Shown: positions 9,333 to 34,805 of the stretch, piece by piece
How positions within the stretch are numbered: position 1 is the stretch's first letter
Layout of the letters: every line of letters starts with the position of its first letter
NCBI GenBank assembly: GCA_951406725.2
Contig: OX597825.1
Location: forward strand, 23,994,001-24,058,000
Length of the DNA stretch: 64,000 bases
Direction of reading: 5' to 3'
DNA from: Octopus vulgaris
Taxonomy: Eukaryota
Position numbers and translations under genes: made by a program
Notes under the pieces: model-generated
Databases searched by the model: none
What the model was told of the DNA's origin: nothing
The model's input: the letters and a program-made list of their open reading frames with translations, nothing else

Positions 9333-10085
9333 AAGGCGGAGAACAATCGGAAACGTTAACACACCGGGGAAAATGCTTGGCGGTATGTCTGAGTTCAAAT
9401 CCGGCTGAGGTCGATATGTCTCTCATCCTTTCGGGGTGGATAAAATAAGCACCAACTGGACACTGAGGTCCATGTAACCGACTTAGTAATTGCTAAAATT
9501 TGGAACAAATAATACACATTTTCAAGACGGTGAGCTGGCATAAATATTAGCACGCCGGGCGAAATGCTTAGCGGTATTTCGTCTGCCGTTACGTTCTGAG
9601 TTCAAATTCCGCCGAGGTCGATTAAATAAGTAGCAAGTACTCACTGTGTTCGATGTGATCGACTTAATCCGTTTGTCTTTCCTTGTTTGTTCTCTCTGTG
9701 TTTAGCCCCTTGTGGGTAGTAAAGAAATAGGTATGTCTGAGTTCAATTCCCGCTGAGGTCGAATTGCCTTTCATCCTTTCGGAGTTGATAAAATAAGCAC
9801 CAACGGGACACGGAGGTCCATGTAACAGACTTAGTAATTGCCAAAATTTGAAACAAATAATACACATTCTTAAGGCGGGGATCTGGCAGAATCTTTAGCA
9901 CTCTGAGCAAAATGCTTGGCGGCATGTCGTCCGTCTTTATGTTCTGAGTTCAAATTCCGCTGAAGTCGTTTTCCTTTAAATCCTTTCGGGGTTTGATAAA
10001 ATAACTACCAGTCATGCATTGGTGTTGATGTAATCGACTTACCCCCACCCTGAAAATGCTGGCCTTGTGTTAAACTTTGAAACCA
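9333..10085 (+). mobile_element. Tandem cluster of SINE family B copies (old duplicated copies plus a young insert)
   Basis: Heads at about 9333, 9524 and 9872; 9382-9520 and 9730-9868 are direct duplicates sharing the GGTATGTCTGAG deletion. Confidence 0.8.
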
Positions 10086-11079
10086 AGAATATGAAGTAGT
10101 GTATGCACGCACGTGTGTGTGTGTGTGCTTGCGTGTGTGTGTACTTGCGTGTGTGTGCGCGCTCACACACACACATACACACACAGAGTATTACATACAC
10201 ATAATGTAAGGCACATGCACATATCGACGAAATGACAGAATCGTTGGAGTCGCGGGGAAGAATTATCTAACGGTAATTTTTGCGGCCTTCTACGTTCTGA
10301 GTTCAAATCTCGCCGAAGATTCTTCCAGAACCAATAAAATCAAGTACAAATTAAGCACAAAATCCGATGACATCGACAAACCACCTTCCTTCAAGATTTG
10401 CTGGCCTTGCTCCCAAATTAGATATACTTTTCAATTATCGTTACGCCCTGTACTGACCTTCTGGGTCAAATAAGTGTCCGTAGCAAAGGAGGTCGAATAA
10501 CTCATGTCTCTACGCCATCGGAGCGGACTAATAATGTTAAGTATAAGCTTGCTGAGTTTTCACAACAGGCTGTGACTACCGATATAGCAAATTAATTGTG
10601 CGGTCCTTCAATTAGGGTTATCTATTTCTGTCTCTCAATCTCTCCCTTTCTCACATATATATCCCTCTGTCTGTATGTCTGTTTGTCTCTCTCTCTCTCT
10701 CTCTCTCTCTCTCTCTCTCTCTCTCTCTCTCTCTCACTCTCTCTGTTTACCTATCTGTCTATCTGTTTGTCTGTCTATGTGCATGCCTATGTGTACTTAT
10801 GTACGTGAGTGTTCATGTGTGACTGTGAGCGTACGCGTATGTATATATATATATATATATATATATGATCGTGTATGTCTATAGATCTATATCAGGAGGG
10901 AGAGAGAGATAGGGAGAAGAGAGAGAGAGAAAGACATACAGACCGAGGGTTTCCTAGCGAAATAGAGCGATATAGATATAGATAGACACGCATACACACA
11001 CACTCACACACATATATACACACACGTACGCACACAACCACGCATACATTTTCACGCACATAAACACACACTTACACAG

Positions 11080-11876
11080 ATACAGACAGATAGACATATA
11101 GAGAGATATTGATAGGTAGATAGATAGATAGATAGATAGATAGATAGATAGATAGATAGATAGATAGATAGACAGACAGATAGACATATAGAGAGATATT
11201 GATAGGTAGATATATATATATATATATATATATATATATATATAGATAGATAGATAGATAGATAGATAGATAGATAGATAGATAGATAGATAGATAGATA
11301 GATAGATAGATAGATAGATAGATAGATAGACATATAGAGAGATATTGATAGATAGATAGATAGACATATAGAGAGATATTGATAGATAGATAGATAGATA
11401 GATAGATAGATAGATAGATAGATAGATAGATAGATAGATAGATAGATATATATATATATATATATATATATATATATATATATATATATATAGATAGATA
11501 GATAGATAGATAGATAGATAGATAGACAGAGATAGATAGATAGATAGATAGATAGATAGATAGATAGATAGATAGATATATATATAGATAGATAGATAGA
11601 TAGATAGATAGATAGATAGATAGATAGATAGATAGATAGATAGAGAGATATTGATAGATAGATAGATAGATAGATAGATAGATAGATAGATAGATAGATA
11701 GATAGATAGATAGATAGATAGATAGATAGATAGATAGATAGATAGATAGATAGATAGATAGATAGACATATAGATAGATAGATAGATAGATAGATAGATA
11801 GATAGATAGATAGATAGATAGATAGATAGATAGATAGATAGATAGATAGATAGATAGATAGATAGATAGATAGACA
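11080..11876. repeat. About 0.8 kb (GATA)n tract with (TA)n islands
   Basis: Directly visible; source of the 317-aa IYLS ORF; recurring interruption GACATATAGAGAGATATT. Confidence 0.95.
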
Positions 11877-12429
11877 TGGGAGGAAAAAAAACCAATTTGT
11901 GAGTCAACTTGTAATTGTTTTCTATTCCATTCTCTGTTTCTAAAGTAATTATTGACCTTGTCAGACCTCTCCTGTCCTTAGAAATAGAATATATTTATGA
12001 ATGCATTGAGCGTTATTTAGAGATCTGGAGATGATAATGATAACGCTTTTGTTTGGAAAAAAATATTGGGGAATTGAGAACAAAAGATTTTTCCAGCAGT
12101 AGTGCTGTATAACTAGACGGTATTACGCGCCAAGATTCATTTGAACTAATATGTTTTTGAGGCGAAAACCCAGTCATTGTATATATTTTGGAACAATTAA
12201 AGTTGCATCGTGTTCTTATTCTATCGGATGTCTAATAGCCGCATACACATACATAAACACATGTACACACACACACACACACACACAAACACACACATGC
12301 AAAGTCACACACGCTCGTACACACATATGTATGTATGTATGTATGTATGTATGTATGTATGTATGTTTGTATAAATATGTATAAATATTGCCGACATGTT
12401 CAACGAGGCTATCTATATTCGGTTACTTT

Positions 12430-12660
12430 AAGGCGGCGAGCTGGCAGAAACGTTAGCACGCCGGATGAAATGCTTAGCAGTATTTCGTCTGCCGTTACGT
12501 TCTGAGTTCAAATTCCGCCGAGGTCGACTTTGCCTTTCATCCTTTCGGGGTCGATTAAATAAGTACCAGTTACGCACTGATGTCAATAAAATCGACTTAA
12601 TCCGTTTGTCTGTCCTTGTTTGTCCTCTCTGTGTTTAGCCCCTTGTGGGTAGTAAAGATA
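12430..12660 (+). mobile_element. SINE family B long form with 16-bp target-site duplication
   Basis: Full head to GTGGGTAGTAAAG tail; TSD TATATTCGGTTACTTT at 12414-12429 and 12663-12678. Confidence 0.92.
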
Positions 12661-33500: not shown

Positions 33501-33599
33501 ATTATGAACATAAAAATAAACGTTAATATTTAGAATGACAAAGCTACTTACAAGATTTACTTGAAAAATTCATAATATTCATATCGATGGAATATTCGG

Positions 33600-34030
33600 A
33601 GATGTGGCGTTGGTAGAATCGTTAGCACACCGTGCAACTACTTTTCCCCATTTTGTCCGTCGTTACGTCTCGAGTTCAAAATCCGACCGGATCGACTTTG
33701 CCTTTAATCCTTTCAGTATCGATAGAATAAGTACCAGTTGAATACTGGTGGTCGATTTAATCGACTTACATCCTCCCCCAAATTGTTGGACTGGTTCGAA
33801 AATTCGAAAACGATATTATTAGTACATTTAAGGCAACAAACTTGCAGATTCATTAGCCACCCGGGCAAAATGCTTAGCAGTATTTCATCTCCCTTTATAT
33901 TTCGTGTTGAAATTTAACCGAAGTCAGCTTTGCCTTTTATCCTTTCGGGGTCGATAAAATGACCATTGGGGTCTATAATAATTTACTTACCCAACTCTTA
34001 GAATTGCTGGAAATGAGCCAAAATTTAAAA
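33600..34030 (+). mobile_element. Two diverged SINE B copies
   Basis: GAGTTCAAAATCC...TTTGCCTTT..TCCTTTC core present twice. Confidence 0.7.
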
Positions 34031-34362
34031 TCAAAATTATTTCTCTCAGGCTGATTTTTCTTTTTTTTTTTTCTTTTTAGGAAGAGAACAGGTTTTCGTT
34101 TGACGACAGGGTGTGACGATCAAATGCATAACCTTTATCCTTTAAATTCCATACGTTATATTTCATACTTGTATGTTTCTTGCTTTTAGCCATCTTAAAT
34201 TACTTTCTGTCTTATATACAAATCCATTCCTTTTCTAGATGATATTTTACTGCATCGAAACTCTTTGAAGAGACAAAAATAACTATTTCTTTGTTCTTTG
34301 TTCTAGTTCAACTGTACTGAATATTCTACAACTCAGTATTGCATCAATATTAATAACGGTTA

Positions 34363-34805
34363 CGGCGGCGAGCTGGCAGAAACGTTAGCACGCCGGGCGA
34401 AATTCTTAGCGGTATTTCGTCTGCCGCTACGTTCTGAGTTCAAATTCCGCCGAGGTCAACTTTGTCTTTCATCCTTTCGGGGTCGATAATTTAAGTACCA
34501 GTTGCGCACTGGGGTCGATGTAATCGACTTAATACGTCTGTATGTCCTTGTTTGTCTCCTCTGTGTTTTGCTTCTTGTGGGTAGTAAAGAAATAGGTATT
34601 TCGTCTGCCGCTACGTTCTGAGTTCAAATTCCGCCGAGGTAGACTTTGCCTTTCATCATTTCAGGGTCGATAAAGTACCAGTTATACACTGGGGTCGATA
34701 TAATCGACTTATTCCCTTTGTCTGTCCTTGTTTGTCCCCTCTATGTTTAGTCCCTTGGGGGCAATAAAGAAATAAGAAACGTTATCAAGTCGGGCGAAGT
34801 GCTTA
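34363..34805 (+). mobile_element. Tandem SINE B long forms
   Basis: Junctions AAAGAAATAGG|TATTTCGTC (about 34596) and AAAGAAATA|AGAAACGTTA (about 34774). Confidence 0.88.

Follow-up and report, generated by a model that had tools for sequence, protein, structure and literature searches.

A short interspersed element of Octopus vulgaris whose long tail is joined at a fixed position inside copies of its own family

Target choice by non-LTR retrotransposons (those lacking long terminal repeats, LTRs) is credited mainly to the endonuclease of the long interspersed element (LINE) (PMC4494074). Among the described systems closest to the present one are the SINEU-3/Tx1-Mar system of crocodilians, in which a short interspersed element (SINE) occupies set positions inside a repeat family (PMC4494074), and the Zepp/ZeppL LINEs of green algae, which insert into their own copies (PMC8226300). 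R2 and R1 provide a precedent for junctions guided by target-derived RNA ends; their 5' junction is uniform if the RNA carries target sequence that can anneal, and otherwise shows deletions, duplications and truncations (PMC3774820, PMC2718515). Active SINE, Dong-R4, L1-Tx1, CR1 and RTE families are included in the repeat annotation of Octopus vulgaris (PMC13282606), the examined part of which does not describe the junction reported here. In the accessible literature, with subscription papers and repeat databases outside its scope, no SINE is described as targeting its own family at a fixed base. The window analysed here is a stretch of 64,000 nucleotides from Octopus vulgaris (assembly GCA_951406725.2, contig OX597825.1, positions 23,994,001 to 24,058,000, forward strand), and all positions below count from its first letter. 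It contains a SINE family whose long-tailed form is repeatedly joined at one fixed position inside other copies of the same family.

In the family unit, 51 nt of head start (numbered from 12430 as position 1) are followed by a body of some 118 nt, which begins with TATTTCGTC at position 52, and then by one of several tails, either short (about 50 nt) or long (about 67 nt), the long tail occurring in two variants. Eight long-tail matches were found in the window, six of variant 1 and two of variant 2. Five of the six variant-1 copies continue at head position 50-52 of another family copy, at 3350(-), 9731, 13509, 25056(-) and 34596, and an earlier note on this DNA, which had claimed a single family-internal joining site at these five places, is thereby confirmed. 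The same note had the tail run into TATTT throughout; at 9731 TATG is read instead, because the partner carries a private deletion in common, as the note had seen, with the old neighbour at 9382. The tail at 13509 is indeed truncated, 16 nt being missing between two GGTA words. The sixth variant-1 copy (12430-12658) stands free at a site that also starts with TAT and has its own 20-bp target-site duplication (TSD) with one mismatch, so that targeting is not obligatory, again as claimed. One variant-2 tail is cut by another repeat, and the other, ending at 34774, is joined to head position 17.

A shared six- or seven-letter word does not explain the junction well. GGTATT occurs 35 times in the window, 10 times inside family copies, and GGTATTT 19 times, 8 of them inside copies; the chance of five landings out of six in family copies is p 0.009 for the shorter word and 0.05 for the longer, with both shares inflated by the junctions themselves, which are counted in them. 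The first base that differs from the young body is the 6th at 3350, where the partner departs from it, the 4th at 9731 and the 12th at 13509; partner sequence thus starts within 5, 3 and 11 bases of TATTT, respectively, at the three informative junctions. The possibility that the first body bases conceal a short TSD was dismissed, since the left and right body starts differ at these three loci. The units concerned are as follows, fractions giving divergence.

3350..3581 (-): young long form with head, body and variant-1 tail; 3/117 from the young-body majority; GCGTAGCCG head variant
3250..3349 (-): old body without a head, its junction at head position 52; 27/99 from the insert
3241-3091: old copy of a second repeat family interrupting the old partner at 3350; 38/150 from the majority of that family
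9333..9523 (+): old copy A, which has a head of its own, a spacer, and a private deletion following GGTATG; 20/102
9524..9731 (+): headed long form ending in a variant-1 tail, 30 bp deleted internally; 9/90
9732..9871 (+): duplicate of A from position 52, deletion and spacer included, a candidate 141-bp target duplication; 15/142 from A
9872..10082 (+): old short-form copy C, directly downstream; 31/117
12430..12658 (+): free long form, tail end AAAGA; TSD 12410-12429 and 12659-12678, 20 bp, 1 mismatch
13292..13509 (+): long form with GCGTAGCCG head; tail lacking the 16 nt between two GGTA words
13510..13674 (+): short-form body lacking a head, with a short tail; departs from the long body at base 12
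25056..25223 (-): long form truncated at its 5' end, starting near body base 13, with an old family copy before it at about 25340-25224; 2/103
24886..25055 (-): long form lacking a head, tail of variant 2; interrupted by the second repeat family
34362..34596 (+): headed long form ending in a variant-1 tail; 5/117; no TSD detected
34597..34774 (+): long form without a head, tail of variant 2; has one substitution, at body base 15, in common with the left unit
34775..34805 (+): piece of a head (positions 17-47) attached to the variant-2 tail, with unrelated DNA beyond it; 5/31 from a young head

The 3' junction is constant and the 5' side differs between loci, being in register at 13292 and 9524 and truncated at 25223. 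No resident head remains upstream at 3350 and 25223, and a single head is present at 13292 and 34362. The composite at 13292-13674 lies within a perfect 17-bp TSD (13275-13291 and 13675-13691) and has one head, as the earlier note had described it. That note had also proposed that the 5' end is resolved through the homologous head, a step that these loci do not show: the insert at 9731 keeps an old head upstream (9333), and at 25223 the insert is 5'-truncated and its partner headless. The suggested refreshing of old promoters would be a structural by-product, the composite presumably using the insert's own head.

The recurrence of the junction beyond the window was followed in four of 24 public runs with the free monomer and its flanks (12375-12735) as the reference: X22 (raw reads, organism A), X1 (organism A), X8 (organism D) and X14 (organism E), rows with a small share being left unused. 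Figures for joints and loose ends come from the rows listed, with 1056 joints and 1287 loose ends beyond those; run counts are saturated, contigs are not loci, and free insertions give no joints, hence no proportion can be drawn from them. Seven of the 15 joints listed start at the end of the long tail. Three of the listed joints lead from there to 12479-12481, in 38, 16 and 5 contigs of X1, X8 and X14, and the same long-tail-end joint is found in one of the 16 aligned reads of X22. Three others lead to 12495, with letters between not known, in 30, 19 and 1 contigs, and may be instances of this junction in which the partner belongs to an older subfamily. The variant-2 joint, from 12649 to 12446 (position 17), was counted in 6, 2 and 2 contigs of X1, X8 and X14. 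Loose ends before 12480 that read as long tail number 1248 contigs in X1 and 693 in X8; in X14, where the long tail is rarer, the corresponding row is not among the six listed. The tail-to-body depth is 0.61 in X1, 0.46 in X8 and 0.14 in X14. Both junctions, at positions 50-52 and at 17, are recurrent and common to three organisms, and a fixed position inside a repeat family, seen in five of six cases in the window and as the same joint in X1, X8 and X14, is a real feature of this SINE.

Several further observations were made in these runs. Only 16 of 12,895,792 raw reads of X22 were aligned, a number too small for proportions, against hundreds of thousands of contigs in a run under the same organism label. 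A third tail type is indicated in X1 by a joint from 12565 to 12480, which leaves the body at about base 85 and also ends in GAAATAG; this joint forms a GAAATA/TATTTC inverted repeat around GG. Opposite-strand joints among those listed run from 12428 and 12429 to 12495. Finally, a joint from 12571 to 12430, present among those listed in 12, 12 and 3 contigs, suggests that head-to-tail runs are common.

The ages of the two halves bear on the question of a dimeric master element or insertion into resident copies. The earlier note held the downstream body to be far more diverged than the insert at 3350 and 9731. This is true of 3350, where the insert differs at 3/117 from the young majority and the partner at 27/99 from the insert (Fisher p 1.3e-7), and at 9731 the asymmetry is weak (9/90 vs 21/100, p 0.046). 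The right-hand body at 3350 was resident long before the insert, because the second-family copy that interrupts it is itself diverged at 38/150, whereas 11 of the 14 other aligned copies of that family lie at most 10% from the majority. The head of this insert differs at 2/48 from the head at 13291, and it is young and lineage-limited, since its two variants account for 20% and 23% of the depth in X1 and X8 and for 0.35% and 0.86% in X14. No clear age gap is seen at 13509 (6/117 vs 7/117), 25056 (2/103 vs 6/117) and 34596 (5/117 vs 7/113), and the 31-nt head piece at 34775 (5/31) is not significantly older than its body (p 0.13). Halves of equal age with always the same partner, which the note had named as the mark of a dimeric master, are thus not what is found at 3350 and 9731, while the other three of the five junctions are compatible with equally old arms. 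Nor is there one fixed right arm: the right halves belong to different classes, namely old bodies, a short form (13509) and variant-2 long forms (25056, 34596), and a single dimeric master fails for this reason. As a single event, the arrangement at 9731 is most simply explained if an insertion into A duplicated 141 bp of its target and was joined, on the 5' side, at the head start of copy C; a two-step alternative is an earlier tandem duplicate followed by head replacement. The loci at 3350 and 9731 argue for insertion into residents.

The family is short, interspersed and present in many copies (about 230-390 bp, 28 body matches in the window, and 228,743 to 546,205 contigs aligned in each public contig run), and its TSDs vary in length (20 bp at 12430, 17 bp at 13292); searches at 34362, 3581, 26941 and 9333 gave no clear TSD. 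The head, read by eye, is presumably tRNA-like with the A and B boxes of an RNA polymerase III (Pol III) promoter, judged against the usual consensus. ARAGORN called 0 tRNA genes for the family head, and Rfam gave three matches up to E 10 over 12400-13700, none of them a tRNA or a ribozyme; a retrozyme was rejected on the latter count. Family positions 2-91 fold into a long stem with the closing pair GGCGG/CCGCC (z -2.64). The long tail shows no significant likeness to the two LINE 3' ends of the window, 79 and 86 of 500 shuffles being as good, and its likeness to the short tail and to the interior of the second repeat family is marginal (13/500 shuffles each). The family may resemble the Nin/Deu-domain SINE superfamily. 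Two short family motifs are absent from the part of PMC11121367 available as text. An autonomous LINE does not fit a unit of about 230 bp with few long stop-free frames crossing the copies, mostly in simple repeats. Pattern scans for tail or body in metagenome, viral and prokaryote genome contigs gave 0 matches.

We propose, with a probability of about one half, that the long-tailed SINE is recurrently target-primed into resident copies and is aimed by family sequence in RNA that reads through past the tail. Repeated insertion into resident relatives as such, whichever of two ways of choosing the site is at work, is probable. It is a more tentative suggestion that the SINE homes into its own family by RNA guidance, the read-through 3' end pairing with any resident copy much like the primer-binding arm of a prime editor. 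An early long copy would have landed at head position 50-52 of another copy and become a source. A run of at least four T is absent in four of the five units checked, and without such a TTTT stop Pol III would read through into the partner, so that the source RNA would carry partner sequence behind its tail. The reverse transcriptase of the partner LINE would bind the tail and start just behind it, while the stretch of RNA behind the tail, from GGUAUUU on, would base-pair with any family copy on its nicked lower strand. The edge of homology would then set the junction, and only the long unit would be copied. The 5' end may be closed in variable ways, in register on the head, with loss of the resident head (3350, 25223) or by way of a long duplication (9731), closing through the head being modelled on the junctions of R2. 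Some composites may be re-copied whole, and some RNAs may prime at unrelated TAT sites, as at 12430. A fixed 3' end with a varying 5' end is the polarity of target-primed reverse transcription, and the junctions seen here have that polarity.

Several points weigh against this proposal. The joints in the public runs attest to a common junction without telling how many of the loci arose de novo. Age asymmetry is present at two of the five junctions, at one of them weakly (p 0.046), and 13509, 25056 and 34596 fit re-copied composites equally well; the halves at 34596 share the substitution at body base 15, and the first 40 bases of the partner at 25056 match the young body, both as in a copied dimer. 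Behind the variant-2 tail ending at 34774, nothing of the head is present but positions 17-47, and this looks more like copied read-through RNA than a resident target; the head piece at 34775 fits a read-through RNA, and it equally fits a copied composite. With a divergence of about 27%, the target at 3350 is ill suited to forming a long RNA-DNA hybrid. No partner LINE was found when the two LINE 3' ends in the window were compared, neither an RNA 3' end nor an empty site came to light, none of the listed contig pieces spanning the 12430 locus, and the tail hairpin is no more stable than shuffled sequences (z -1.47 to 0.28).

The same observations can be read as dimer or multimer masters retrotransposed whole, the old partners having been acquired later through ectopic gene conversion or unequal crossover with a resident monomer. 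The perfect TSD around 13292-13674, halves of similar age at three of the five junctions and a variant common to 34413 and 34597 are what such masters would leave. The same one-headed architecture with one pair of TSDs is known from a bivalve, in a paper that considers unequal recombination as a source of SINE arrays (PMC11481361), and likewise from SINE-derived satellites (PMC10702118). We nevertheless consider it rather unlikely, as partners of differing classes demand several masters, conversion tracts must stop within 3-11 bases of the junction in all three informative cases, an acceptor 27% diverged is by general knowledge a poor substrate for recombination, and the duplicated local spacer at 9731 requires an extra event. 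Insertion into residents could also be directed by the partner LINE, whose sequence-specific endonuclease, of Tx1-like or restriction-like type, would recognise the SINE head, with RNA pairing incidental. SINEU-3 and Tx1-Mar at set positions of Mariner-N4_AMi are the precedent (PMC4494074), and L1-Tx1 and Dong-R4 families have been recently active in Octopus vulgaris (PMC13282606, Table 1); the third tail type joins the same site (12565 to 12480, X1), the free site too starts with TAT, and the site lies on the 3' arm of the long head hairpin (z -2.64). The third tail at the position-50 site and the TAT start of the free site leave room for a nuclease or hairpin preference. A classical Tx1 element, however, keeps both target halves and a TSD, whereas 3350 and 25223 lack the resident head and 13292 and 34362 have just one head; variant 2 sits at an unlike site, site and hairpin are decayed in the targets at 3350 and 9333, and no LINE end was found at the site within the window. 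Two tails with two unlike sites favour a choice made by RNA over one nuclease motif, and we regard the nuclease as sole guide as unlikely.

The remaining explanations, RNA chimeras, circles or a terminal-repeat retrotransposon in miniature (TRIM), are together very improbable. A jump of reverse transcriptase from a headless family RNA to the end of a long-form RNA, or a headless circle copied or recombined in, would yield one head, one TSD, a fixed junction and varied partners, as at 13292, and the junction lies just 3' of the hairpin loop. At 3350, however, both the partner and the repeat within it are about 25% diverged and hence resident, genomic spacer is duplicated at 9731, a headless circle could not supply the young head at 3581, and no ribozyme family was matched; chimeras and circles are accordingly most unlikely. 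Direct repeats on either side of a short inner part with a purine-rich run at its end could recall a non-autonomous LTR element with tRNA-like LTRs of the Helenus type, its purine-rich tail end serving as polypurine tract and the monomers as solo LTRs. This is scarcely credible, and the Helenus-type TRIM was rejected on TSD length and unequal repeat ages: the TSDs measure 17-20 bp and not 4-5 (PMC10886601), and the two repeats are 27/99 apart at 3350. The 51-nt head of the left repeat is moreover absent from the right one, and a free long form without a second repeat exists.

If target priming aimed by read-through RNA is correct, and the RNA end of a SINE determines its landing base, a passenger RNA would be able to redirect LINE machinery, and the family would constitute a natural collection of very many events in which homology-guided priming could be tested. 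A concrete route would also be given for module shuffling and tail exchange among SINE superfamilies (PMC11481361, PMC4758252) and for one-headed multimers. Under homing by RNA guidance, a fresh head, body and tail would be written in front of an old body, each tail variant would have its own address, the target would be chosen without a specific nuclease, and subfamilies would keep recombining. Repeat dating would be biased in this lineage, one locus joining parts of very different age. If dimers with conversion are the true explanation, the composites are an ordinary composite subfamily.

Other arrangements of the family are present in the window. A head-to-head inverted pair at 29843-30084 consists of a backward copy reaching head position about 25 and a forward body from about 48, the rejoin point lying close to the fixed junction; it adjoins a near-perfect inverted duplication (29682-29740) centred in the head of the second repeat family. 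Older family copies form head-to-tail runs at 26941-27633, 33611-33960 and 9333-10430. At 52007-52190(-) an (ATT)n run stands immediately before a family head, and ATT- or ACT-type repeats close several of the short tails; such repeats beside family copies may hint at the preferred sites of the partner LINE. Outside the family, two 3' fragments of one LINE, presumably CR1-like, lie at 14782-15600(+) and 18150-18654(-), with similar 3' ends and a short tandem tail. A 327-bp tandem duplication at 3763-4401 has a first unit that translates to a zinc-finger-like stretch, and a 39-bp tandem unit at 5440-5588 contains telomere-type TAACCC repeats. A stop-free frame at 37988-38353(-) resembles the start of a Helitron protein.

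Compared with known systems, the SINE shares different features with different elements. DIRS-1 of Dictyostelium likewise prefers pre-existing copies for integration, but it is a tyrosine-recombinase element without long TSDs or a tRNA-like head (PMC3950715). Dimeric SINEs of the Alu type also have two related units within one TSD, an arrangement possible for 13292-13674, while such a family has one fixed right arm of equal age (PMC3531059). The TSD-(SINE)n-TSD multimers of Scapharca broughtonii (PMC11481361) and the SINE-derived satellites of squamates (PMC10702118) show a headed first unit, later units cut at one head position and one outer pair of TSDs, as here; recombination is suggested for them and the text available reports no age difference, whereas ages and subfamilies differ in the present family. 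R2 and R1 have the same fixed 3' junction (PMC3774820, PMC2718515), with the site set by a specific endonuclease and the target being 28S rDNA (ribosomal DNA), while here the target is the element itself. Zepp and ZeppL resemble the present case in nested insertion into their own copies and in tandem units, but are autonomous LINEs with one cluster per chromosome (PMC8226300), in contrast to a non-coding SINE at dispersed loci. SINEU-3, like the SINE described here, has free insertions in addition to those at set positions; its target is another family, the TSD is kept and the partner LINE is known (PMC4494074). Here the SINE's own family is the target, the resident head is often lost, and two tail variants occupy two sites; both target halves are not kept with a short TSD, heads being lost and 141 bp duplicated at 9731. 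The family thus works like Zepp and SINEU-3 and belongs to neither.

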